From a virus (taxonomy: Duplodnaviria > Caudoviricetes): a stretch of DNA of 64,000 nucleotides. Numbering within the stretch: position 1 is the first letter of the stretch; each line of letters starts with the position of its first letter. The stretch lies in the IMG/VR virus record IMGVR_UViG_3300022660_000043. One strand, given 5' to 3'. Shown here in pieces: positions 4,805 through 19,569 of the stretch. The translations under genes were made by a program, and so were the position numbers. The notes beneath the pieces are model-generated. The model searched no databases. It saw only the letters and a program-made list of their open reading frames with translations, and was not told where the DNA came from.

Positions 4805-4881
4805 TGGTGCCGACCGCAGGATTCGAACCTGGCTACCTCGCGATTATAAGTCGCGTGCACAGCCATATGTGCTTGACCGGC
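4805..4881 (-). tRNA. tRNA-Ile (anticodon UAU), CCA encoded
   Basis: revcomp GCCGGTC...CGCGA-CTTATAA-TCGCG...CAGG-TTCGAAT-CCTG...GGTCGGC-A-CCA; full cloverleaf. Confidence 0.9.
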
Positions 4882-5340: not shown

Positions 5341-6318
5341 TTAATTTTTAGAGCTATTTTTAAAAACTTTAGTAATGTTGTCAGCTGTAAAATCTTCTTT
5401 GTTCAGAATACGAACAGGTCGACCATATTGATAGGTGCCAGGCAAAGGAATTCCAGGAATTTGAGAGCCATTTACGATACACTCAAATTTCTCTACACCT
5501 TTCTCATCAATATAAGGCATACAACCATCCATAGTAATAGCCTTCCAATAAATACCCTGCATATCCTCACAGAAATGATGCGGATTACCATGAATAGCTC
5601 TTGTTTTGACTAGAATATGATAGCCACCTGAGGTATCAATAATTAAGTAATTACCCAAACCAAATCTTTGGTTAAGGCTGTCAAGCATCTGACTATAATA
5701 GCCTTGGTACCCACAGGCATGATCCTTAAACCACGGCGGAACATCGAGATCAAAGTCAAGCCAATAAACTGAACCCTTACAATGAGCTCTTGCATGCTTT
5801 ACATTGCTTTCAATATTGCTGAAATTTTGATATGACTGCAAATTAGCGTCAAGTGTCTTACCGTTCAACATTGCTTTAACGATAGCTGTCTTAGTATCAT
5901 TAAGCTTCTGCATTACTTCATCAGCTACTTTAAGTTCATCACAAGGATTTACATAAAAGATAGTAGCAATACATTTCTCAGGAAGTGGATAGCCACCAGA
6001 AGTAAGATAAGCTCCCTTATCTACATTAAATCTCTTAAGCTTCTTTACGAAATTAGTCATGTTCCAGCCATCATCTTCGGCAAGATCGGCTGCATCATGA
6101 AACTTTCTAACTCGAAAAGTCTGAGTAGCTAAAAACTCTGCATCCTTTTTTGCAATACCTACCTCAGCTCTTTCCTCTGCAGTAAGCTTCTTAAATCTCG
6201 CTACAAAAACTGCAGCATAAGACTCATTTACTTGTGGCTTCTGAATAACGTGCTCAAAAAACCACTTGAGTTCATCTTCATCTGCAATAACTTCAAAACG
6301 ATCTAAATCTCTGATCAT
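5341..6318 (-). CDS. putative archaeo-eukaryotic primase (AEP)-fold nucleotidyltransferase
   Basis: WLDFDLD (motif I, hhDhD) and DTSGGYH (motif II). Confidence 0.55.
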   Translation of the reverse strand: MIRDLDRFEVIADEDELKWFFEHVIQKPQVNESYAAVFVARFKKLTAEERAEVGIAKKDAEFLATQTFRVRKFHDAADLAEDDGWNMTNFVKKLKRFNVDKGAYLTSGGYPLPEKCIATIFYVNPCDELKVADEVMQKLNDTKTAIVKAMLNGKTLDANLQSYQNFSNIESNVKHARAHCKGSVYWLDFDLDVPPWFKDHACGYQGYYSQMLDSLNQRFGLGNYLIIDTSGGYHILVKTRAIHGNPHHFCEDMQGIYWKAITMDGCMPYIDEKGVEKFECIVNGSQIPGIPLPGTYQYGRPVRILNKEDFTADNITKVFKNSSKN

Positions 6319-7019
6319 CGTATATCCTCCAAAAGCTCCCAGTCCATAAATAAGAAGTGCATCTTATCATGGTGTTTGTTTGTATGCCAATGTCCACAGA
6401 ACCAAGCCTTATAATCAAGTTTATCTTCAATCTCATCAAGCCAACGCTCTGTGCTATCGTCTACCTTAGACTGGTCAATACCAGAAATGAACTCCTCAAC
6501 AGGCTCATACTTAAACGGACAAGTATGCGAGAATACCGCATCTACCTTATAATTTATACTATCAAGTTTTTCGGCGACATTTGCTTTAATAGCCTCAGAA
6601 GGCTGTTCACTCTCAAACCAAGCATAACCACTTGCCAAACGATAATATTTATCTACACTATAGGCACCACCAAGAACGAGGCACTGTTTGCCGGCAAGAG
6701 TATAAACTTGGCCATCAATCGCAAACAGAAGCTTTGGATACTGTGGCTGTCTATATACTAGACCACCACCCCAAAGCATAATCTCGTACCCAGCTACATT
6801 CTGAGGTCGTTCCTCGTGATTACCATGAATACAAAGAATAGTAGCTTCAATATATTTATCCAAAGCTTCTTTTAGCCGATCATCTTTTTTATTAAGATAA
6901 TAATTTGCACCGACATCTCCGAGAAGCACAATAATATCATCTTTAGTTACACCAAGTTGCTGGGCTCTATAAATCAAGAACTCAGGATTTCCATGAATAT
7001 CTCCAGTAATATATACCAT
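6315..7019 (-). CDS. calcineurin-like metallophosphoesterase
   Basis: GDIHG, LGD, GNHE, SH, GHWH motifs; start 7019 with GGAGG. Confidence 0.9.
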   Translation of the reverse strand: MVYITGDIHGNPEFLIYRAQQLGVTKDDIIVLLGDVGANYYLNKKDDRLKEALDKYIEATILCIHGNHEERPQNVAGYEIMLWGGGLVYRQPQYPKLLFAIDGQVYTLAGKQCLVLGGAYSVDKYYRLASGYAWFESEQPSEAIKANVAEKLDSINYKVDAVFSHTCPFKYEPVEEFISGIDQSKVDDSTERWLDEIEDKLDYKAWFCGHWHTNKHHDKMHFLFMDWELLEDIR

Positions 7020-7081
7020 AATAAACCTCCGATACAGTTCTAATATATTATACAACAGGCAAAAAAGAAAAGTTGCGTATT

Positions 7082-7285
7082 TCAGCAACTTTCTTTCTGC
7101 TTTTCTTCCAAAGCTTTATCGATCATATCCCTAATTTCTAATAAGCGTTCTGCAGGGCAATCTAATACTAATTCAAAGTTTTTTGGTACGGCTATTAAAT
7201 CAACACCAACCTTATTTTGAATTACTTTAAACAGCTTCATAAGGTTTTCTTTTGGTAGAGAATCATCATAGTACAGAATGTTCAT
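7082..7285 (-). CDS. hypothetical protein
   Basis: tiling. Confidence 0.6.
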   Translation of the reverse strand: MNILYYDDSLPKENLMKLFKVIQNKVGVDLIAVPKNFELVLDCPAERLLEIRDMIDKALEEKQKESC

Positions 7286-7685
7286 AAGTTATCTCCTTAT
7301 AAAACGGATCTTCAGAGTACTCATAATAATCATCTGCCTCAGAACAGTTATACCAACAAAATTCAACAACACGAATTGCTGAAAATTCAGCTGCCGGCAT
7401 AATCTGAGCAAAAAGCCGAGCAAAAACATTAAACTCAGTTTGATAAAGCTCACGCACTTTGCCCCACTCGCCGTCATTGGCGTCATATTCACGCTCAATT
7501 ACAAAATCAATAAAAGTGCTCTCAGTAGGAGCAAACTGAAATTTGCCTACTTTACCATACTCAAATAAACTCTTAAAATTTTGTTCACAGTACTCTCTAG
7601 CAGCATCAACATCCTCAAACCTATGCTGCCAACCTGTTTTTTCATAAGGAATTCTCAATACCTTTTCTCTTACATAAGTACTCAT
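7266..7685 (-). CDS. hypothetical protein
   Basis: 139 aa, tiling. Confidence 0.7.
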   Translation of the reverse strand: MSTYVREKVLRIPYEKTGWQHRFEDVDAAREYCEQNFKSLFEYGKVGKFQFAPTESTFIDFVIEREYDANDGEWGKVRELYQTEFNVFARLFAQIMPAAEFSAIRVVEFCWYNCSEADDYYEYSEDPFYKEITYEHSVL

Positions 7686-8242
7686 GTTCTAGCCTCCTTA
7701 ACAAAAGTTGCACTTTCATCTGCTACATGAAGAAGCCAAGCCAGAGGGCAATGCTCCCAAGCAGCTGCAATTACATTATTCTCTCCGTCCCAGGTGCCCA
7801 TATGACAATTAATTGATACAGCTTCCTCTGGAAGAAGTCTAATAAAGTTCTGCAGAATAAATACAGACTTACTACCATGTCCACCGTAATGAAGCTCTTC
7901 ATTATGAACATAAGCATCATATGTCTCCCACTTACCCTGAGCATCCTTACGATACTTAACTTCCTTGCCATACATATTTACTTTACACAAATCATGAAAC
8001 AAGGAAATAATAACAAGACTCTCTTCAGAAGCATTGATCTCAGGATAAATAGCAATCAAACGCTTTAACTCATTATATACATTAAGGCTATGTTCAACAA
8101 GTCCACCTTCATAAGCACCGTGATACCGAGTGCTTGCTGGGGCAGTAAAGAAATCACTGTTCTCAAGCCAAGCAAGCAACTCTGGCATTCCTGGTCTCGT
8201 AATAGATTGACACAACGAAATAAAAGTTTCTTTATTTGTCAT
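7682..8242 (-). CDS. HD-domain phosphohydrolase
   Basis: APASTRYH..GGLVEHS, HDLCK, HG, HMG, AD. Confidence 0.9.
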   Translation of the reverse strand: MTNKETFISLCQSITRPGMPELLAWLENSDFFTAPASTRYHGAYEGGLVEHSLNVYNELKRLIAIYPEINASEESLVIISLFHDLCKVNMYGKEVKYRKDAQGKWETYDAYVHNEELHYGGHGSKSVFILQNFIRLLPEEAVSINCHMGTWDGENNVIAAAWEHCPLAWLLHVADESATFVKEART

Positions 8243-9052
8243 TTAGCTCTCCTTGGGAAGAAATCTCTCAATATAGTTTCGGTCCTGTGTAAAAATAGGA
8301 CATTCTTTATCAATATACCACTCAGATCGTGCTGCTCCATTACGCTCTACAGATCTCTTATAGCAACAAACACCACGCTTAAACTCAATAGGCATATCAT
8401 TGAAATTAATACCCTTCTGCCACAACATCTCCTGAATATCTGAAGTAGACTTCTTGTGCAGCTCCTTATGACTAAAGTGTGTTTGTCCAAGCATCTGAAT
8501 GGCATTACGAGTAGCATCTTCTTGCCTCCAGATATACACGTTACAAACTTCTGAGGTAGGAATGCTGAAGCAGCGAGCATCAAACATTGCACCCTTATCC
8601 TTGGCCTTCAGCAGTTCAATAGAATAGTTATCAAGAGTTTTGCCGGCAGTATACTCATTAACATAAGTTCTGAAAGCCTTATTGAAGTGCAAGGTAGCCA
8701 TAGAAGCAGCAATAGAGCACATCTTTTGCACACCGTATCCAAACCAAGCATCAGTATTAATAGTGTCGTAATCAGTCAACAGAAGTGAAATTTCGTCGCT
8801 CTGTGTATATCCAAACTTACAACCCTGGATATTTTTACAAAGATACTGCAAGGTAGAATTCATTGCCTTATGGAAAACCTCGTCATAAGGCTTTTGAAAA
8901 TTCTTACAAAATGAATGAAAACATTTGCCGTCGATTCGAATCACCACAGGAAGCCTTCTGGTAAGATAAGTCTTAGCTCTATTTTCATAATTATTTTTCA
9001 TTCTATCGCCGAGCGAATCTTTTTTATTTGCCATAACATAATTGCCTTTCAT
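8243..9052 (-). CDS. thg1: tRNA(His) guanylyltransferase / Thg1-like 3'-5' polymerase
   Basis: RIDGKCFH, YTQSDEISL, FDAR, WRQEDATRN; start may be 9034. Confidence 0.92.
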   Translation of the reverse strand: MKGNYVMANKKDSLGDRMKNNYENRAKTYLTRRLPVVIRIDGKCFHSFCKNFQKPYDEVFHKAMNSTLQYLCKNIQGCKFGYTQSDEISLLLTDYDTINTDAWFGYGVQKMCSIAASMATLHFNKAFRTYVNEYTAGKTLDNYSIELLKAKDKGAMFDARCFSIPTSEVCNVYIWRQEDATRNAIQMLGQTHFSHKELHKKSTSDIQEMLWQKGINFNDMPIEFKRGVCCYKRSVERNGAARSEWYIDKECPIFTQDRNYIERFLPKES

Positions 9053-9172
9053 TATTTAATTTTATTTAACTCTTTTATGATTACGTGAAGCCTCTCCAAT
9101 ATGACATTTGTGTTCTGCAGATAATGGGAGCTTTCCTCTTAGCCAACCAAGCGCCAAATATGTAAAAAATTA

Positions 9173-9409
9173 TTAATCTCGTCTTTTGTTAGCTTTACAG
9201 ATAGCTCTAACAATTCCGATAAAGACACCTACAATAAAAATTACGATACAAACCGCAACAAAAAGTGCAATAGGAATCCAAAGAGGTGCTGTTACCCACC
9301 ACCAGGACCAATTAATTATATTACAAAGTTTAAGAACCAGAAAAACAATAAAAACCAAACCACTGAGGGTAATACCACCACCAGCGCTAACTCCACTTTC
9401 TCTATTCAC
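9173..9409 (-). CDS. small membrane protein (LKL..I.WSWWWV.APLW family)
   Basis: two hydrophobic segments, characteristic motif. Confidence 0.75.
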   Translation of the reverse strand: MNRESGVSAGGGITLSGLVFIVFLVLKLCNIINWSWWWVTAPLWIPIALFVAVCIVIFIVGVFIGIVRAICKANKRRD

Positions 9410-9414
9410 AGCTA

Positions 9415-9819
9415 TTACCTCGTTCTAAATTTACCAAAAGGCAAAGTAGCCCAACGAATAATACACTGTCTGCAAGTCTCTTGGTCTGTATTCTCATCCT
9501 CAGTTGCCTGGCAAACATAATCCTTAACATCTGGCGGGCACTTATCCGCTACTGCAAGCTCAAGAGCTTCCAATAGTCTCTTAGACTTTGCAGTATCGGG
9601 TCCGGCTACCTTAGCTGCCCAGTTTCTAAAGCACTGCGCACAGATCTCTTCCTCAGAACCCTTAGCATTAGGGTCTTCACAAAGGTAATCTACATTTTCA
9701 GGTGGACAGTCTTCTCCAAGAGCAGATCTGAGTACATCATACAAATGCTCCTCTCTTGCAGTATCAAGAGAATAATCATACATTTTATCCTTAATAGGAT
9801 CAAGCTCTGATCTAATCAT
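9415..9819 (-). CDS. hypothetical protein with two CPP-x-C-x-CxxC repeats
   Basis: DCPPENVDYLC...CAQC and KCPPDVKDYVC...CRQC. Confidence 0.7.
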   Translation of the reverse strand: MIRSELDPIKDKMYDYSLDTAREEHLYDVLRSALGEDCPPENVDYLCEDPNAKGSEEEICAQCFRNWAAKVAGPDTAKSKRLLEALELAVADKCPPDVKDYVCQATEDENTDQETCRQCIIRWATLPFGKFRTR

Positions 9820-10238
9820 TCTTTATCAATCTCCTTCTTAGATTTATCACAGGTACAAAAATAGTCAGCTGGGATCTCTGCAATAGTTTCATCTGCCTTA
9901 TTTAATATCCAATAGGTATAACTATTTTTAACAGTCTCAAACTTAAGTACAGCAGTATCAGCATTTGTACTAATAATCTCAAGCTTTTCAATAGCTATCG
10001 GTCTAATATGTCTATGGTACTTACCTTTGCCGTCTACATATTCAAAACGAGTGATAGGCTTGGAATAGGGAGCACTATTAATAACCTGAACATCAGAAGT
10101 AAGTTCAACTCTATAGGTATCAGAGCTCTTAAGCAAAAACCTAAGAGCCTGATCCCTAAGATCACTTAAATTAAGTGCTTCCTGTAGATCTCTATAGTGT
10201 TGTTCACTAAGGTCCCGCCAATATTTCTTAGTTCTCAT
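9816..10238 (-). CDS. hypothetical protein
   Basis: tiling; start MRTKK. Confidence 0.65.
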   Translation of the reverse strand: MRTKKYWRDLSEQHYRDLQEALNLSDLRDQALRFLLKSSDTYRVELTSDVQVINSAPYSKPITRFEYVDGKGKYHRHIRPIAIEKLEIISTNADTAVLKFETVKNSYTYWILNKADETIAEIPADYFCTCDKSKKEIDKE

Positions 10239-10239
10239 A

Positions 10240-11658
10240 TTACATCTCCGCAAGGACATCCTCTGCTACGTCAGCAGTAGACTCGGCAAGCTTCTCGCCA
10301 ATAATTCCCTCAAGAACCTTGAAAGAGAAATTTTTATGCTTGAAAGCAGCAAACTTAGGACGGTTTACGATACGTACCACTACACCCTCACGAGTATGGG
10401 TCTTGCCAACAGGATCAGGACCATCGAAGTAGTCCTCAGCGCAACGCATAATCATATCTCCAAGCTCACCATCGCCAATAAGGTAATCATGATCATAGCC
10501 ATTAGGTGCAGTGAAATGAAGTCTATCCTCAGAAAGAGTAGCCTTACCAAATACAAGAACAGTCTTTACACCCATCTGCTCACAACGGTAACGCATGAAG
10601 TCAGGAGTATACTCTACAACCTCTCCGTCCTCGTTAGTCATAGTCATACGATATACGTAGATATCTGACTGAGGCAGTGCATTTTCAACACCAATTTGGT
10701 TATGCTCTTCATCAAGATAATACCCAACACCATTAGGAGCACAGCCATAGGAGAACACAGTCTCCTTACCATACTGCTTTACAAAGTCTTTACCAAGCTT
10801 CTCGTTATTACCATTACCCATGATAGGTGCTCCAGTGTGAGTAAAGCCTACGACCTCGTAATAAACAGTCTCACCCTTCCAAAGCTTTCCTACAAAAGTA
10901 TCATGATGCTGCTTACGGAACTCATTAGAGCCATAGAAGCCGCCATCAAAAGTATCGAGTACTACACGACGAGTACCAGATACATAGCCCCAGTCATATA
11001 CAGGCTTACCAGGTCTATGAAGAATACGATCCATAATAGATCTCTTATAACCAGTAAGTACCTTCAAATGGCCAGTACGCTGGGAAGTACCATGCATCTT
11101 AAGAGAAAGCTCAAGCTCATCGCCAACCTTGAAAGCTCCAAGATTATACGCAAGCTGCTCAGTATCTGCATGCTCTGCAAAGGTAGGTGCAATAGGTGCC
11201 TTAAACTTACGAGTATGATTACCCTCAGATACATGACCTCTACGTGCCTGAGTACGAGGGATGTACTTAGTGCAAATCTCCTCACCATTAAATACATCAA
11301 TACGGTCTCCTACTCTAAGGGTAGAGATATCACCAAAAGACTCAAGACAATGGAGAGGAAGGAAAAGACCATCAGACTTCTCGCCTCTAAGCTTAATAGC
11401 AGTTACATTTCTCTTATCAGGATCCATGTAGCCACCAATATTATTGCCATCAGCATCCTTCTTTCTAAGAAGGTTATTAGCCTCAGCAAACTTCACAGAA
11501 AGCTGGCCACCGGTAGGGAAATATACACCAAGTTGGCCCTCAGTATAATCAAGAGATACGCAAACAGTGTTACCGAACACATCAGCAAGCTGCAAACGAT
11601 CTGCATTAGGATGCTTTCTAACATCCTTCAAAGTAGTTACAATAGCATAATAACTCAT
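10240..11658 (-). CDS. RNA ligase with N-terminal tRNA-binding OB-fold (DRB0094/Rnl2-like)
   Basis: HPNADRL OB-fold motif; KMHGT (I), YEVVG (III), EGVVVR (IV), FKHKN (V). Confidence 0.85.
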   Translation of the reverse strand: MSYYAIVTTLKDVRKHPNADRLQLADVFGNTVCVSLDYTEGQLGVYFPTGGQLSVKFAEANNLLRKKDADGNNIGGYMDPDKRNVTAIKLRGEKSDGLFLPLHCLESFGDISTLRVGDRIDVFNGEEICTKYIPRTQARRGHVSEGNHTRKFKAPIAPTFAEHADTEQLAYNLGAFKVGDELELSLKMHGTSQRTGHLKVLTGYKRSIMDRILHRPGKPVYDWGYVSGTRRVVLDTFDGGFYGSNEFRKQHHDTFVGKLWKGETVYYEVVGFTHTGAPIMGNGNNEKLGKDFVKQYGKETVFSYGCAPNGVGYYLDEEHNQIGVENALPQSDIYVYRMTMTNEDGEVVEYTPDFMRYRCEQMGVKTVLVFGKATLSEDRLHFTAPNGYDHDYLIGDGELGDMIMRCAEDYFDGPDPVGKTHTREGVVVRIVNRPKFAAFKHKNFSFKVLEGIIGEKLAESTADVAEDVLAEM

Positions 11659-11690
11659 AATAATGTCTCCTTTATTTTTACTTCATTTAA

Positions 11691-12590
11691 TTATACATTG
11701 TGCCAGTGTACATTTTCAAAGTCTGCCACAAAAATAAGATGATTTCTTTCTAAATAAATATTTTTAAAGTCTTCAAAATAAGAGGTATTGAATCCAAAAG
11801 TAGAAGGCATGTCAACAAAGAATCTTGCAAGCGGGTCAATGTGCCCTTCATACGTATAAAGCTTTGCAGGACATACCTTACCAAAGCGTTCGAGGTAACT
11901 TCTACAGAAATTACGGTATTGATGCTCAGGCATGATTACATAACAGGGAAATTGCTCGGAATCCTTAATCATCTGCTGAATCCAAGCAGTTTTTCCGCAT
12001 CCTCGACCTGCACGGAATTTATGTACTCTAGCAAAAGGAGGACGACCAAAACGACCTCTTACAAGCTCTTTAACTAGAATATAAAACTCTTTCCAGGAAC
12101 CTACTCGATAATCCTGCACAGTAGAATTCTGATTATAAGGTGCATCAAAAAGAACCTTAATCCCCTGACAACCTACAAGATTGTGCTCTGCATCATCGAG
12201 AATAATGTCGCAACGAATAAGTGACTTATTATAAGTAATAATTACATTCTCTTTATCTAAAAATGGAAAATGAGCAAACAAGCACTTCTTAAGCTTATAA
12301 GGCAAAGTCTTATAATGTGAACTTGTAATGACATAGATCTCGTGACCTTCTTGCATCAAACGTGCTACCACATCTACTGCCTCTGGTTTAATCTTTACCT
12401 CATCCCAAAACTCAGGTGTGTTAAGAGGTTCAAAAAGATCTGCCTTAGACAAAAAAGGATAGCATTTAGCGAGCTCCCAATCTTTAACCTCGTCAACTGC
12501 TACCGACCTACCATGCTTTCTATTTAGCCACTCAATCCAAGTATCAAGCATGCTATTAATAGTGCTGTCAAAATCAATTCCGATAACCAT
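11691..12590 (-). CDS. 5'(3')-deoxyribonucleotidase (NT5C, HAD) with C-terminal P-loop-like extension
   Basis: GIDFDST, ITS, K, LDDAEHN, APYN; extension has GRGCGKT. Confidence 0.85.
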   Translation of the reverse strand: MVIGIDFDSTINSMLDTWIEWLNRKHGRSVAVDEVKDWELAKCYPFLSKADLFEPLNTPEFWDEVKIKPEAVDVVARLMQEGHEIYVITSSHYKTLPYKLKKCLFAHFPFLDKENVIITYNKSLIRCDIILDDAEHNLVGCQGIKVLFDAPYNQNSTVQDYRVGSWKEFYILVKELVRGRFGRPPFARVHKFRAGRGCGKTAWIQQMIKDSEQFPCYVIMPEHQYRNFCRSYLERFGKVCPAKLYTYEGHIDPLARFFVDMPSTFGFNTSYFEDFKNIYLERNHLIFVADFENVHWHNV

Positions 12591-12617
12591 TTTATATTTT
12601 TCTCCTTATTAAAGGTT

Positions 12618-12736
12618 TGGCCCAAGACCCAGGACTTGAACCTGGACGCTACCCTGATCATTGATAGCTGATCTATTCCGACCTGCGTCTACCGTGATAG
12701 GACTTACCAACCTGCCTATACTTCCGCCAGCCTTGG
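12618..12736 (-). ncRNA. tRNA-like RNA TL1 (class II scaffold, D-loop insertion, degenerate anticodon arm, CCA)
   Basis: CCAAGGC/GTCTTGG-G-CCA acceptor; CCAGG-TTCAAGT-CCTGG T arm; TGGCGGAA...GGTAGACGC D arm. Confidence 0.75.
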
Positions 12737-12746
12737 ATATAAAAAT

Positions 12747-12809
12747 TAGGGGTCATTATGAGATTTGAACTCATCAAGGCGTCCCTCGCTCACCTAAAAG
12801 CAATGACCC
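12747..12809 (-). ncRNA. minimal tRNA-like RNA TL2 (~62 nt)
   Basis: GGGTCATT/AATGACCC stem; ATGAG-TTCAAAT-CTCAT T arm; GCT/AGC D arm; GAGG-GACG-CCTT mini arm. Confidence 0.7.
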
Positions 12810-12818
12810 ATACAGCAA

Positions 12819-12926
12819 AAATTTAATAGCTGTTCGTCTAACTCCATTTACTACAGCTCCTGTACCCAAGCATGACGCATTCTCAAAGCGTTTCTTGCAT
12901 CTTGGCTTTGTGGCACTATTAAATTT
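12819..12926 (-). ncRNA. repeated structured RNA motif, copy A
   Basis: AATTTAATAG/CTATTAAATT closing stem around GTGCCACAAAGCC...AGCTGTAGTAAATGGAGTTAGACGAACAGC. Confidence 0.75.
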
Positions 12927-12936
12927 AATACAGATA

Positions 12937-13055
12937 GGGGTGAAGGAGATGGGATTTCGTTACCCACAACACACCCGATATTTACTCAGGCCGCTCTTAT
13001 TACTTATCGCTCTTTACCTCAAGCTTTATAACTTCGCAATTGGCGTACTCCTTCA
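12937..13055 (-). ncRNA. tRNA-like RNA TL3 (expanded D-loop, 9-nt T loop)
   Basis: TGAAGGAG/CTCCTTCA stem; GTGGG/CCCAT arm; CCTGA-GTAAATA-TCGGG arm. Confidence 0.55.
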
Positions 13056-13103
13056 TTTGGGTTGCATGCAAAAAACTTATTTTATTCGTTCAGAAAAAAC
13101 AAG

Positions 13104-13362
13104 CAAAAACTCCTAGCTGTCAATACTTGACAAATCGTATATAGCTGCTTCCGAGCCGCCAGAAGCACCGCTAGTACGTCTCTAAAACCCAGTCATAACC
13201 GCCTACTGACTGCTAGCGCCCACTTTTCTCTAGACCTTCCCACCTTAGTCCTACACAGTTCCTTCTCATCAATCCCAGTAGATAAGCGGATCTACTGCTG
13301 TGCCCACAAATTTAGGTTGCGCTCTCCCTACAGCTTATAAACTGTTGGGCGGAGTATCCTCA
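13104..13362 (-). ncRNA. ~255-nt multibranched structured RNA, unassigned
   Basis: ACTCC/GGAGT closing; CAGTAGAT/ATCTACTG, CACAG/CTGTG, CAGTCA/TGACTG, CGCTAG/CTAGCG, GCTTC/GAAGC, TGTCAA/TTGACA stems. Confidence 0.55.
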
Positions 13363-13411
13363 CAAAAATCAAAAATCATTAAAATAAGGTCTCCTTCCTA
13401 AATAAAAGATT

Positions 13412-13515
13412 TCAAAGAGCTGTTCATCTCACTCCATTTACTACTGCTGCTTCAGGGACACCGCTTTCCGATACAGGCTTGCCTAACGCTCAATCGGCTT
13501 CGTAGCACTCTTTGA
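13412..13515 (-). ncRNA. repeated structured RNA motif, copy B
   Basis: TCAAAGAG/CTCTTTGA closing; GTGCTACGAAGCC...AGCAGTAGTAAATGGAGTGAGATGAACAGC. Confidence 0.8.
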
Positions 13516-13583
13516 TAATAAGTCTCTTGTTTTGGCAGTCCAAGCGAAGACTACGGGGAACTTCCCACGTTCAACACCAAATC

Positions 13584-13685
13584 AGACCCGGCTGTTTAAC
13601 TCTTTCCATTACCACAGCTTCTTACAACCTCACCAAATACTTCGCTCATGATCTCCATATTCAGCGCTTCGTGGCACCCAAGTCT
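13584..13685 (-). ncRNA. repeated structured RNA motif, copy C
   Basis: AGACTTGG/CCGGGTCT closing with G-U pairs; GTGCCACGAAGC...AGCTGTGGTAATGGAAAGAGTTAAACAGC. Confidence 0.75.
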
Positions 13686-13769
13686 CAGCAACTGTCAAAG
13701 CTCGTTGCACTCTTCCCTTCTGAGTTTGTTTCTCTACGAGTCTCAGCCGGTTGGCGTATTGTTCGTAGT

Positions 13770-13846
13770 GTAGGCTGGTTTTCGCATTATCCATTTACCA
13801 CAGTTTTCCTCCGTTCATGCTTGACTTCCGGCTTCGTGGCACCTAC
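13770..13846 (-). ncRNA. repeated structured RNA motif, copy D (shortest)
   Basis: GTAGG/CCTAC closing; GTGCCACGAAGCC...AACTGTGGTAAATGGATAATGCGAAAACCAGC. Confidence 0.75.
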
Positions 13847-13847
13847 T

Positions 13848-13980
13848 TGTGAGCTGTTCATTGCACTCCATTTACCACTGCTCCAGCTTCCGTCTCTTAA
13901 TCCCATATTGGCATTGGCTTCTTAGGCCATCTCTTAACTGCCGTATCTACATTAAGTCCATAGGCTTCGTGGCACTCACA
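13848..13980 (-). ncRNA. repeated structured RNA motif, copy E (longest, promoter-proximal)
   Basis: TGTGAG/CTCACA closing; GTGCCACGAAGCC...AGCAGTGGTAAATGGAGTGCAATGAACAGC. Confidence 0.8.
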
Positions 13981-13995
13981 TTATATAATACAATA
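13981..13995 (-). promoter_or_regulatory. class II promoter (TATTGTATTATATAA) driving the ncRNA block
   Basis: same motif precedes many other transcription units. Confidence 0.7.
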
Positions 13996-14024
13996 GGGAG
14001 CTTAGAAATTTAAGCTCCCTTTTT
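13995..14024. terminator. hairpin AGGGAGCTTA-N-TAAGCTCCCT insulating the ncRNA block
   Basis: 10-bp inverted repeat at end of upstream operon. Confidence 0.6.
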
Positions 14025-14725
14025 ATAATTTTTCCAATCTTTTTTCCACTGCTTTGAGTATTTGTCAAGAATATGTTCCACAATAACAGCATTACCTTGT
14101 TCTATACCACAAGATCCAGCAAAATACCAATCATCTCCGAGTAAATAATCACAGAGTATGTGTATTGCAGTCTGAGCATTAAGTGGTGGAGGATAAATAC
14201 CATAAGTAGTATCCTCAATATTATCTCTCATTAAGTCAAAGCTCTTGTTGTAAATATAATTCTCTTTCTTTTTCACGCTCCAATACCATCGCTTTCATTT
14301 TTGCTAAATCAGCTCCATCAATATATACAGTTCCACAATTTGCACAAACCAAAGGCTCTACAGAAAAACCAAAATAGCGATTAGTTGTAAGCTTTAAGTA
14401 ACAGCAAGCATCAGTAGCGTCTGATCTAAGCTTTAAAACTTGATTATACCCACAATTAGGACAACCTCTAATATTTGTCATATTTAACTCCTTATCCTGC
14501 ATCAAACATAAGTTCAGGGATCTTAGTAGTCTTCTGTCCAGGTGTAAGATTAAACTCTGTATCAAATCTGAATCTAGGTCTAAAATCACCATCTCCATCT
14601 GCATAAAAACCAACAAGAGAAGAATGTCCTAAACTACCATTTCTTTGAATATACCTCAAAAAAGAACAAAAGTCATCAACCCAGCGCTCTTCCATAGTAA
14701 CTTCAATATTAAACGTTTTTTCCAT
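14010..14725 (-). other. three small hypothetical CDSs (14010-~14230, 14236-14481 Zn-ribbon, 14492-14725)
   Basis: tiling; CPNCG...CANCG. Confidence 0.65.
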
Positions 14726-15291
14726 TATACTATATCTCCTATATTACGTACTTCTACTTGACAAGACTGCATTACTCTAAGTGCTGCTACGTGGGCATCC
14801 GGAGTAGTACCGGCACAACAAGAAGCATCGCAGCTAATAACCGTCTTTTCACCCCAAACAGACGCCTTTAAGATAAGCGCATTAGAAACCACACAAATAT
14901 CAGTACAAAAACCAATAAGCTCAATCTCTTCAATAGGCTCTTTTTCAAGCAGCTTCTCCGGTACACACATTTCAACTCTATGATAAAGCTCAAGATCACC
15001 GAAACGGGTCTTAGTTAGCCGCCAACGACCCTCCAAAAACTCTTTAAGCTCAGGCACAATATACCAACCTTCAGTCTCATCAATACAATGCTTAACAGGC
15101 AGGTACTTTCCTTCCATAGTTTTATCATAATCGTCAAAATGTGTATCCTGCGTAAATACTACTTGCCAGCCTTCATCAATTCGCTGCTGAATCTTTTCTT
15201 TAATAACAGGGATTTTAGCCTGAGCTTCAGGATTTGCCAGAGTACCAGTCACAAAATCATTCTGAACATCAACTACCAGTAATACTTTCAT
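14725..15291 (-). CDS. pncA: nicotinamidase/isochorismatase-family cysteine hydrolase
   Basis: VDVQNDF, QDTH, HC, K, CTDICV catalytic pattern. Confidence 0.8.
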   Translation of the reverse strand: MKVLLVVDVQNDFVTGTLANPEAQAKIPVIKEKIQQRIDEGWQVVFTQDTHFDDYDKTMEGKYLPVKHCIDETEGWYIVPELKEFLEGRWRLTKTRFGDLELYHRVEMCVPEKLLEKEPIEEIELIGFCTDICVVSNALILKASVWGEKTVISCDASCCAGTTPDAHVAALRVMQSCQVEVRNIGDIV

Positions 15292-15292
15292 A

Positions 15293-15715
15293 TCACACCT
15301 GCTTTACAAGAGCTGCAATCTTAGACTTGTCAAAACGGTTACCAACTTCTTTTGCGGTAAGACCGATTACTTTGCCCGTGTTAGGCTCAGTCTCCTTGAT
15401 ACGCTTAATGATAGTAATAACTTCCTCCTCACTCATCTGCTTAGGAAGATATTGGTCAAGCTCATCAATAATGAACTGAGCTTCAGCATATTCATCATCT
15501 CCAATTGAATAAACTGAAAGAAGATCGTTTCTTTCTTTATATTCCTTTACAATAAGATTAGTAATCTGTTCATCAGTAAGAGGTAATTCAAACTGACCAG
15601 ATTTCTCTGCAACAAGGATTCGTTGTTTAAGATACTCATAACAAGTTCTTTTTTCTGTATCCCTATTCTTGAATGCTTCTTTCCATTTTTCATTAATAGT
15701 TTCTTTCAATGACAT
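15293..15715 (-). CDS. GatB/YqeY domain protein
   Basis: MSLKETI...KEAFK.RD, KE.KER, YLPKQMSEEE. Confidence 0.85.
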   Translation of the reverse strand: MSLKETINEKWKEAFKNRDTEKRTCYEYLKQRILVAEKSGQFELPLTDEQITNLIVKEYKERNDLLSVYSIGDDEYAEAQFIIDELDQYLPKQMSEEEVITIIKRIKETEPNTGKVIGLTAKEVGNRFDKSKIAALVKQV

Positions 15716-17767: not shown

Positions 17768-18181
17768 TTACCTCACAAATTCTAAATTTTCAGAATACCA
17801 CATGTCCCAATTATCTGGCGCCTTGCACTCAAATAAATCTACTGGCATAAGATCCCAGCATCTATGTTGGTCTGATTCAAACCAGATGATCTTACAAATT
17901 CGACCATACTTGGTTTTTACGCAATCTCCCTCATAAAGCTCACGACCGTTCTTATCTTTTGCGCCCACAGAACGTTTTGCAGTCTTAATAAGCTTTTCTC
18001 CACAGTAAGGACAGAACCCTATAGTGCAGTCAAGCCTATTTCTATACATAGTATTCCAATAGCTTATCACTAATTTAACTTCTTCACCATCTTTCATAAG
18101 CTCGATTTCTGTACCATTATAGTCTGCAGCCAATCTACTATGAACATGATCTTCTGTTAATCTTCTACATACGTCGCACAT
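17768..18181 (-). CDS. Zn-ribbon plus YopX-like C-terminal domain
   Basis: FCPYCG; KDKNGRELYEGDCV. Confidence 0.65.
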   Translation of the reverse strand: MCDVCRRLTEDHVHSRLAADYNGTEIELMKDGEEVKLVISYWNTMYRNRLDCTIGFCPYCGEKLIKTAKRSVGAKDKNGRELYEGDCVKTKYGRICKIIWFESDQHRCWDLMPVDLFECKAPDNWDMWYSENLEFVR

Positions 18182-18704
18182 TCGTCAAATCTCCTGTAAT
18201 CCTTCTGTTTTCTTTCCGGAAAAGATCCTCCATGGCCGTTGTCTTTATTAAAGATCTCTTCAAACCTTTCAAATTCCTTAAGAGTAAAACCAACTCTATA
18301 GTCAGTCTGGATAAAATGACCTATCTGCTCAGGAAGCATATCACAATCATCATCGATAATAACATAGTAATTAATCTCAGGATGCTCTTCAAGATAAGTC
18401 TTTATCTCAAAACCCCTGCACTGCTCCCTAATTTCTTTAGTACGTCCTAAAATCTCAATTCCAGATCTCAGACCACCATTAATAAGACACTCTTTGTAAT
18501 TCTCATCCCAGCGCCAAGTAGAAGTTACTACAATATCATAATGAAACTTCTTGCACGCTTCAGAAAGCCATTGTACAGCCTGAAAATTATTTACTTTATT
18601 ATCCTTAGGAAAATTATAAGAGCACCTTGTACCCTTCTCATTCCACATCGGAGTATTTACGACCCCATCTAATCATAGTCAAGAAAAACAACTCTTGACT
18701 TCAT
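18157..18704 (-). pseudogene. HAD phosphatase (Swiss-Army-knife RNA-repair type) interrupted by a 5-nt insertion; pseudogene or recoded gene
   Basis: GAGGTG RBS + MKSRVVFLDYD* then other frame DGVVNTP...VVTSTWR..RG.EI..IIDDD. Confidence 0.8.
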
Positions 18705-18714
18705 TTAAACCACC

Positions 18715-19569
18715 TCAATTCTTTTGTTTATATATAAAATATCGATCTAACTTTGCATACTTGTGAGAATCTCTAGTACAAGCAGTACGGATATAGCCTG
18801 AATCTAAAGACAATAGTTTTGCAGCAGCTGAAGCAGATTCATATTCTGCTATTACCTTACCATTAGAGTCTATTTCTAAAACAGGCTGTTTATATTTTCG
18901 TACTTTATGCTCTATTGGAGATAGCTTATCTAACCTTAAATAGCTCCATTGAGTCTCGGCAGCAAGTTGTCCTGGCACAGTAAGTGCAAAAAATAAGCTC
19001 TTAGTTGAAATATTCAAAGATTCTGCTGCTGTAGCCACTGAGTCATAAGTCATCAAATAAGTGCCATCTGGCGCGTACTGATAAATAGTCTTTAATCTTA
19101 AACTATGCTGATATCTATTCCCGCGGCGCCGGCTTTCTGTCTCATTATAATCTGGTAGTACCTTTAAAACACCTCGGATGCTGTATCTAGTAGCCCCAGT
19201 AATTGTACTAATTTCTGCAATACTTTTACCATCCCGCCAAAGCTGATAAATTAAATCATAATCTAATAATATAGCACCCTCTCCACCACGAGTAGCATTG
19301 TATCCCTTCCCAAGTGGAGCAAAGCTTTCATATCTAGAAATATATAGTTGTTCAGCATCTGCAACCTTATCTGCATCTACTTCTTCGACTAACTCTATTT
19401 TAAAATTTTCGATTCCATATTTACGCATTGCACTGTACAAAGGCCTTTTAAGCTTTAATGTAAAAGCAGCAATTTGATGTTGTCGAAATCTACGATCTAA
19501 AGTAGTAGAAGTCTGCCCTATATAAATCTTATTGTTTTGTAAATTAGTAATTTTATAGATAAATGCCAT
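18715..19569 (-). CDS. free-standing GIY-YIG homing endonuclease with NUMOD1-like repeats
   Basis: FIYKITN..NNKIYIGQT, R, E, GYN..GG; YDSVATAA and YESASAAA modules. Confidence 0.9.
   Translation of the reverse strand: MAFIYKITNLQNNKIYIGQTSTTLDRRFRQHQIAAFTLKLKRPLYSAMRKYGIENFKIELVEEVDADKVADAEQLYISRYESFAPLGKGYNATRGGEGAILLDYDLIYQLWRDGKSIAEISTITGATRYSIRGVLKVLPDYNETESRRRGNRYQHSLRLKTIYQYAPDGTYLMTYDSVATAAESLNISTKSLFFALTVPGQLAAETQWSYLRLDKLSPIEHKVRKYKQPVLEIDSNGKVIAEYESASAAAKLLSLDSGYIRTACTRDSHKYAKLDRYFIYKQKN

Follow-up and report, generated by a model that had tools for sequence, protein, structure and literature searches.

Are the structured RNAs encoded directly upstream of a set of RNA-repair genes in an uncultivated gut phage made for the enzymes that follow them? 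This question is raised by a block of apparently non-coding DNA in the virus record IMGVR_UViG_3300022660_000043 (Duplodnaviria; Caudoviricetes), of which a stretch of 64,000 nucleotides (nt), here called the window, was analysed. A first reading, made from the sequence alone, had proposed that the adjacent enzymes use the RNAs as substrates, splints or decoys, and that both together form a tRNA-repair or anti-defence system with an RNA component. The window corresponds to the minus strand of a viral contig of 88 kb in IMG/VR, ~38% complete, which originates from animal gut or faeces samples. All genes near the RNA block are located on the minus strand of the window.

Our analysis favours, with moderate confidence, a different explanation. 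The block would be one polycistronic array that encodes small stable RNAs and derives from the phage tRNA-gene system, rather than a set of RNAs made for the adjacent enzymes, and the conserved core of these RNAs would act in trans on a common host factor or ligand.

A repeated RNA motif of phage tRNA arrays

The block covers the 1,419 nt (12591-14009, minus strand) between the stop of an 88-amino-acid (aa) gene (14010) and the start of an NT5C-type phosphatase gene (12590). It had been described as a block of ~1.37 kb without open reading frames (ORFs). Indeed, no ORF of at least 60 aa is present on the coding (minus) strand of the entire 1,419 nt, but a conserved micro-ORF of 14 codons, preceded by a strong Shine-Dalgarno sequence, is found at 13379-13335. 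The five repeats of one motif that had been noticed in the block (E, D, C, B and A, in the order of transcription) were recovered, and their common structure is far above chance:

13843-13986, minus strand: motif copy E (model R1, 75.7 bits)
13764-13853, minus strand: motif copy D, a minimal form (model R1, 63.4 bits)
13581-13688, minus strand: motif copy C (model R1, 69.4 bits)
13409-13519, minus strand: motif copy B, with a GCUAC/GUAGU compensatory variant of helix P2a (model R1, 82.1 bits)
12819-12927, minus strand: motif copy A (model R1, 82.5 bits)

The five units, copies of an RNA of 90-200 nt, share the box GUGCCACGAAGC on the 5' side and, on the 3' side, the box GUGGUAAAUGGA..GAACAGC. 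The flanks of every unit pair to form a closing stem (P1), the sequence of which is different in each copy. P1 stacks directly on helix P2a (GCCAC/GUGGU, replaced by the compensatory pair in copy B), which is followed by a purine-rich internal loop (GAAG opposite ..AGNAGCW). A distal arm of 18 to ~140 nt comes next; it differs in every paralogue and is retained between orthologues. A nearly invariant 20-nt strand, AAAUGGARUGNGAURAACA, returns to P1 on the 3' side and contains a 2-bp mini-helix with three compensatory cases.

The support for this structure comes from covariation and not from folding energy, as the single-sequence folding energies of the motif copies are not significant (z between -1.5 and +0.6). 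In 44 aligned copies, 98.1% of the cells of the two helices are paired. Compensatory double changes occur in 69 cells, compared to 19.5 in shuffled alignments, and none of 500 shuffles reaches 69. Controls in which the pairing was slid give at most 0.095 against the observed 0.376, at most a quarter of the motif score. Around 18 unpaired positions are, moreover, invariant across very different phages.

No Rfam family accounts for the motif. At the gathering thresholds, the 4227 models of Rfam 15 yield a single match in the window, a tRNA-Ile (4808-4881); with E values up to 10 on 12400-14300, six matches were obtained, all far below the thresholds and unrelated to the elements of the block. 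A BLAST comparison of the block and the conserved 3' box to 50,697 records of cultured phages gave chance matches only. The motif is thus a previously unclassified family of structured RNAs, absent from Rfam.

Several other readings of the motif were considered and abandoned. An alternative hairpin in the 3' half (AGCUGU/ACAGCU) carries an A-A mismatch in half of the copies and is contradicted by the covariation of P2a. Mimicry of an anticodon loop by the variable arm is seen in only two out of 84 hairpin loops. None of the readings of the core as a kink-turn, sarcin-ricin loop, tetraloop receptor, double T-loop or CsrA site matches the invariant letters when compared by eye. Repeats of a type III toxin-antitoxin system (ToxI-like repeats or pseudo-ToxI decoys) do not fit either: the copies are alike in their core only, arms and P1 being different, and no toxin gene is adjacent.

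Relatives of the motif were collected from IMG/VR (two pattern scans), from GTDB genomes (one scan) and through two protein-based look-ups. In the GTDB scan, 13 true copies were retained by requiring both conserved boxes, the remaining matches being mostly chance. Altogether, ~45 distinct copies are present in ~40 uncultivated contigs, mostly phage contigs of 60-220 kb; some of the ~40 were binned in metagenome-assembled genomes of Clostridia, Christensenellaceae or Bacteroidales.

The genomic context of these copies is informative. Outside the clade of the window, nearly every copy is located within a phage tRNA array, and all the tRNAs of that array are on the strand of the motif. In this form, as a gene within an ordinary tRNA array, the motif was seen in ~30 further phage lineages, where Thg1 and the ligase are often distant or missing. 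It occupies the start, the interior or the end of the array, at 4 to ~1,100 nt from the nearest tRNA gene, and at 4-12 nt in some arrays. The closest relative of the window (G003) combines both arrangements: an array of five copies precedes NT5C, and two more copies are within its own tRNA array. Up to seven copies occur per genome. The primary association of the motif is therefore with tRNA genes. Copy D (13771-13845) is even 97% identical to a copy in the tRNA array of another carrier (G008; L026 7951-8025), a genome with no match to the 1.9-kb query other than the copy D region. This identity suggests either a very strong constraint on the whole copy or a recent transfer.

In the window itself, the sole canonical tRNA called by ARAGORN is a tRNA-Ile(UAU) at 4805-4881, and additional tRNAs lie past the window start. 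Some motif-carrying relatives possess tRNAs with a CUA anticodon, reported as 'tRNA-Pyl' by ARAGORN (L018 1932-2104; L043). These are possible amber suppressors and would hint at stop-codon recoding in some of the carrier phages.

The downstream enzymes and their distribution

The presence of the enzymes downstream of the block was borne out by profile matches, which identify an NT5C/HAD phosphatase, an RNA ligase with an N-terminal OB fold, a Thg1-like protein, an HD hydrolase and a metallophosphoesterase:

11691-12590, minus strand: NT5C-type HAD phosphatase (DFDST) with a C-terminal P-loop domain (AGRGCGKT) (PF06941, E 1e-27)
10240-11658, minus strand: ATP-dependent RNA ligase, DraRnl/Rnl5-like, with an N-terminal OB fold (phrog_968, E 4e-65)
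9173-10259, minus strand: three small genes of 147, 134 and 78 aa (no Pfam match above cut-off; the 78-aa product corresponds to phrog_1374)
8243-9052, minus strand: Thg1-like 3'-5' polymerase (PF04446, E 2.6e-32; phrog_4717, E 3e-93)
7682-8242, minus strand: HD phosphohydrolase (phrog_28876, E 2e-53; PF01966 weak)
6315-7088, minus strand: calcineurin-like metallophosphoesterase (PF00149, E 3e-11; DxH and GNHE motifs)

The Thg1-like gene is assigned to its family by a score of 111.9 bits to PF04446 (gathering threshold 29.2), and its product is a candidate 3'-5' polymerase. The 325-aa gene at 5341-6318, previously labelled AEP-like, has no match in Pfam, PHROG or NCBIfam, and this label was dropped.

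The NT5C protein was compared with T4 Pnkp-type end-healing enzymes, which join a P-loop 5'-kinase to a DxDxT 3'-phosphatase acting on polynucleotides; it contains the motifs DFDST and AGRGCGKT. The nearest solved relative of its HAD domain is a deoxyribonucleotidase (PDB 3bwv). The P-loop domain (residues 170-299; 11691-12083, minus strand) has no sequence relative in the PDB, and its predicted fold gives only generic P-loop NTPase matches (best Foldseek E 0.009). On such weak, generic matches, this domain is at most a possible polynucleotide kinase. The P-loop extension is present in exactly the four lineages in which the ligase gene comes next, while a short NT5C of 176 aa is found in two lineages devoid of the ligase, a co-occurrence that would fit a kinase-plus-ligase pair.

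The ligase carries a KMHG motif near residue 186, and no solved relative was found by sequence. Its N-terminal OB fold and nucleotidyltransferase domain would correspond to those of the nick-sealing Rnl5 RNA ligases DraRnl and NgrRnl (PMC4408790). Its match to TIGR02306 is far below the cut-off (48.9 versus 151 bits; E 4e-13), and that of its OB fold to PF21189 is also below (23.5 versus 27 bits; E 8e-5).

If the RNAs and the enzymes were partners, the two should be found together, and co-occurrence had been set beforehand as the check. Across the carriers, they are largely independent. Among the first ten carriers, the ligase of the window was found only in G003; based on the PHROG profile, a phrog_968 ligase is present in 15 of the 33 carrier contigs, and Thg1 in 16 of 39. 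Among the carriers with a completeness of 90% or more, four that are 93-100% complete (G017, G027, G028 and G032) encode no Thg1, phrog_968 ligase, PF09414 ligase or RtcB, and the RNA is therefore independent of these phage enzymes. In addition, the array and Thg1 are kept in G010 and the G030 group, from which the ligase is absent.

The part of the proposed link that did stand is the gene order, which is shared by six lineages (G000, G003, G010, the G030/34/35/39 group, L312-314 and L315). It runs from a Tad8-like or isochorismatase gene through the motif array, the micro-ORF, a structured RNA and a tRNA-like element (TL1) to NT5C, the ligase (where present), Thg1 and HD. Taken together, the motif RNA is probably not a dedicated partner of the repair enzymes, and the RNA-enzyme link consists of a shared neighbourhood and, probably, shared transcription in one clade, with no obligatory partnership.

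Companion RNAs, transcription and upstream genes

Between and behind the motif copies, the block contains further elements, several of which resemble tRNAs, and it is flanked by hairpins and by a row of upstream genes:

among 14725-15291, 15293-15715 and 18157-18648: isochorismatase (nicotinamidase-like), YqeY and a HAD_SAK_2 'Swiss Army Knife' RNA-repair domain
14010-14276, minus strand: Tad8-like gene of 88 aa, directly upstream of the array (PF25189, E 4.2e-20, 71.7 bits, cut-off 27)
13995-14020, minus strand: hairpin separating the Tad8-like gene from the array (resembles a terminator, but the U-tract is poor on this strand)
13686-13772, minus strand: spacer hairpins, copies D to C (predicted fold; kept in G003)
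13516-13592, minus strand: small conserved hairpin element with a GGGAAGUUCCCC core (predicted fold; common to the G030 lineage)
13335-13399, minus strand: invariant Shine-Dalgarno sequence (13399-13390) and micro-ORF of 14 codons (13379-13335, MIFDFCEDTPPNSL), in six lineages
13110-13334, minus strand: structured RNA following the micro-ORF (nested helices)
12935-13058, minus strand: TL3, an acceptor-like stem, a T-arm-like hairpin and extra hairpins (predicted fold; 90% identical in G003)
12750-12809, minus strand: TL2, a mini-cloverleaf (fold z = -2.37, 4 of 200 shuffles fold as well; conserved in G003)
12618-12736, minus strand: TL1, a class II tRNA mimic with a tRNA-Leu-like D arm and an encoded CCA (conserved, with compensatory changes)
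7068-7093, minus strand: terminator-like hairpin at the end of the unit

None of TL1, TL2 and TL3 is called a tRNA by ARAGORN or by Rfam RF00005. An element was considered a tRNA mimic if an acceptor stem of 7-8 bp is located on a T stem of 5 bp with a UUCAAAU or UUCAAGU loop, a 3' CCA being optional. TL1 and TL2 have this architecture; TL3, with its T-like loop of 9 nt, fits less well. In TL1, an acceptor stem is combined with a D stem showing the GCGG..GGUAGACGC signature of class II tRNA-Leu, a hairpin inserted in the D loop, an arm of 4 bp with a 6-nt loop at the position of the anticodon arm, a long variable arm, a T arm and an encoded GCCA. All four tRNA-type helices are 100% paired, and eight pairs show a compensatory change across four lineages. 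The tRNA-Leu-like nature of the D arm is also seen in an IMG/VR scan for TAAGTCC..GTAGACGCA, where three genuine tRNA-Leu genes were left after filtering, among the matches listed; as a search pattern for relatives of TL1, this string proved too unspecific. The third arm of TL2 consists of 4 bp and a 4-nt loop, and hence holds no anticodon. The 3' end of TL1 is always located 15-20 nt before the ribosome-binding site of NT5C, a position that would suit a signal for processing at the junction of RNA array and mRNA. Beyond the window start, a tRNA-Gln(UUG) gene (G000:C1 ~87617-87809) contains an insert of the TL1 design (acceptor stem, extra hairpins, T arm and CCA), with no sequence resemblance to TL1 by eye.

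A single RNA of 255 nt had been suggested upstream of TL3. Most of it indeed corresponds to the structured RNA at 13110-13334, but it begins with the Shine-Dalgarno sequence and the micro-ORF. The helices of the structured RNA vary in step between lineages when compared by eye (CACAG/CUGUG versus CGCAG/CUGCG), and ~115 nt of it are a lineage-specific extension that is missing in G003. The micro-ORF has 14-19 codons in the six lineages, with a core xCE(D/E)TPPx after an invariant GGAAGGAGACCUUAUUU, and the differences between them are third-position changes or 3-nt indels. In relatives, it is located at L020 ~10110-10165, L027 ~11741-11691, L062 ~1275-1334, L312 5636-5706 and L315 3158-3228. 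The product could be a leader peptide or a small protein. An attenuator remains a lead only, as the hairpins behind the micro-ORF lack consistent U-tracts across the lineages.

The transcription signals assigned to the block by the sequence-only reading did not hold. No promoter of its own was found by a consensus scan at 13980-14030. A TATAAT at 13985-13980 was dropped as a promoter because it overlaps the P1 stem of copy E, and the same is true in the G030 lineage. The hairpin taken for an upstream terminator does exist, yet it has only a poor U-tract when read on the minus strand. Likewise, the statement that no promoter motif follows until ~7045 is contradicted by a promoter-like site matching 11 of 12 positions at 11719-11690. 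This sigma-70-like site (minus strand; TTGAAA, 18 nt, TATAAT) lies where the NT5C gene ends, immediately ahead of the ligase start, and the ligase gene may thus have its own promoter. From the RNA array to the downstream genes, the prediction gave no intrinsic terminator.

Metatranscriptome contigs from gut samples (four runs of two studies) cover 12742-14081 at a word depth of 25-240, while the flanking genes at 11804-12339 and 14082-14617 have zero depth and the other flanks 0-5. The contrast between the array and its flanks argues for an abundant RNA over contaminating DNA. The break points of these contigs were not taken as RNA ends, since they coincide with the conserved box of the family and so reflect limits of homology or assembly.

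Upstream of the array, the 88-aa gene exceeds the PF25189 threshold and is, as judged from this profile, a Tad8 homologue. It occupies the equivalent position in G003, G010, the G030 group and L315. Tad8 is an inhibitor of type II Thoeris that blocks the ThsA effector (PMC13728456). Together with the isochorismatase, YqeY and HAD_SAK_2 genes, it gives the surroundings the look of a nicotinamide adenine dinucleotide (NAD)-salvage and anti-defence island, and the counter-defence repertoire described in large phages (Iyer et al. 2021, PMC7824862) matches this set of genes. The relatives L312 and L313 additionally encode an NAPRTase, an NAD synthase and an NMNAT-like gene. The gene row also includes a GIY-YIG/NUMOD homing endonuclease gene (18715-19569, minus strand).

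Competing explanations and known systems

Based on these observations, a mechanism can be outlined for the reading favoured here. The motif would be transcribed together with tRNAs or tRNA mimics and freed by tRNA-processing nucleases, with TL1-TL3 serving as punctuation, and P1 would shield the ends of the released RNA. The invariant core would then act in trans on a factor common to the hosts of the carriers: a component of the translation or tRNA machinery, be it protein or RNA, or else a small ligand. A target in the host is suggested because the surrounding phage genes vary while the core does not. Separately, the HAD-P-loop protein, the Rnl5-like ligase, the Thg1-like protein, the HD hydrolase and the metallophosphoesterase would constitute a tRNA repair module, and this module, the Tad8-like gene and the upstream NAD-salvage genes a counter-defence island.

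The original proposal of RNAs serving as substrates, splints or decoys for the ligase, Thg1 and the phosphatases keeps its repair and counter-defence neighbourhood, and it would explain the synteny with NT5C-Thg1-HD in six lineages, the probable co-transcription, the constant position of TL1 beside the NT5C start and the joint occurrence of the P-loop extension and the ligase. It is nevertheless quite unlikely: the motif is found in ordinary tRNA arrays of ~30 other lineages, four near-complete carriers lack Thg1 and three ligase families, the array occurs without a ligase in G010 and the G030 group, and the distal-arm loops are unlike anticodon loops (2/84). Rather unlikely, too, is a cis element that organizes a long tRNA/RNA transcript, as a nuclease entry or stop site, a stabilizer or an antitermination signal, with no role after release. 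Such an element could well lie always on the tRNA strand, down to 4-12 nt from the next tRNA, and at the start, interior and end of arrays; however, the ~18 invariant unpaired positions exceed the needs of a spacer or stem, and the presence of up to seven copies per genome, the conserved copy-specific distal arms and the high representation in RNA-seq contigs are not expected of it. The closing stem, invariant junction core and freely variable peripheral arm are, on the other hand, an architecture typical of catalytic or ligand-binding RNAs, and the copies are in tandem and adjoin a Tad8-like Thoeris inhibitor and NAD-salvage genes. A new self-cleaving ribozyme cutting the array transcript, or an aptamer that sequesters a small molecule (an immune signal of the host, for instance), is very unlikely all the same, given that no Rfam ribozyme or riboswitch family matches and that most copies are in tRNA arrays, away from anti-defence genes. 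There is a similarly small chance that the motif is a new self-contained functional RNA from tRNA islands, either a sponge or aptamer for an immune signal or for a tRNA-binding defence protein, or a small ribozyme, with tandem copies raising the dose. If this were true, the array, placed beside the Tad8, NAD-salvage and tRNA-repair genes, would serve the phage as a counter-defence weapon made of RNA.

Some points weigh against an array of stable RNAs that is independent of its neighbours. The order of array, NT5C, Thg1 and HD has been held in the six lineages over 54-75% protein identity, and such conservation could mean a functional coupling beyond shared transcription. Many of the carrier contigs are fragmentary, so that part of the absence data is weak and the argument for independence comes down to the four near-complete genomes. 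It is also conceivable that the host supplies a ligase or Thg1-like enzyme that acts on the RNA. Finally, the RNA-seq evidence consists of contigs, many of them from other members of the family, which give no ends, strand or true levels.

Among the closest known counterparts of the stable RNA array favoured here are RNAs of phage T4. The T4 stable RNAs C and D (species 1/2; rnaC and rnaD) are small stable RNAs that the T4 tRNA cluster encodes and that are released from its precursor transcript. Like the motif, they are encoded among phage tRNA genes and on the same strand. They have no sequence or structure relation to the motif family, which, unlike them, shows a conserved core, a hypervariable arm and as many as five copies in tandem, and is found in uncultivated gut phages only. 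Among larger RNAs, GOLLD and ROOL are structured phage and prophage RNAs of 500-800+ nt, 'often near tRNA islands', that assemble into homo-oligomeric cages (Kretsch et al. 2025, PMC12286853). The motif shares their vicinity to tRNA islands, but its RNAs are much smaller (90-200 nt), match neither Rfam model and show no kinship to them in sequence or structure.

For the enzymes, the closest comparison is with T4 Pnkp and Rnl1, which act against PrrC, and with the repair sets of jumbo phages (Iyer et al. 2021, PMC7824862), where tRNA genes, an ATP-dependent RNA ligase, phosphoesterases, a Thg1-type enzyme for 5'-end repair and NAD salvage are likewise found and counter the attack of the host on translation. 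In contrast to T4, the ligase of the window is DraRnl/Rnl5-like and not Rnl1, and the HAD domain is nearest to deoxyribonucleotidases. To our knowledge, no RNA component belongs to any of these repair systems. The combination of the YrlA Y RNA with Ro60/Rsr and RtcB is similar in that a non-coding RNA with a tRNA-like module is located beside RNA-repair enzymes. This system was rejected as a model, as no TROVE/Ro60 gene is present in five genomes of the group, RtcB is missing and no YrlA match is found in Rfam.

The analysis sets an over-reading right, as being encoded side by side is not enough to make the RNAs partners of the ligase and Thg1. It also bears on a wider question, since phage tRNA islands are now viewed as an answer to host attacks on translation, and the non-tRNA RNAs inside them, like T4 RNAs C and D, GOLLD and ROOL, are unexplained. 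With its small size, near-invariant core and apparent abundance in gut metatranscriptomes, the motif is a tractable candidate for probing and structural work and for the pull-down of ligands or proteins. Occurring singly within tRNA arrays and also in tandem beside anti-defence and tRNA-repair genes, it offers a concrete test case for the use by phages of structured RNAs, besides proteins and tRNAs, against host defences.

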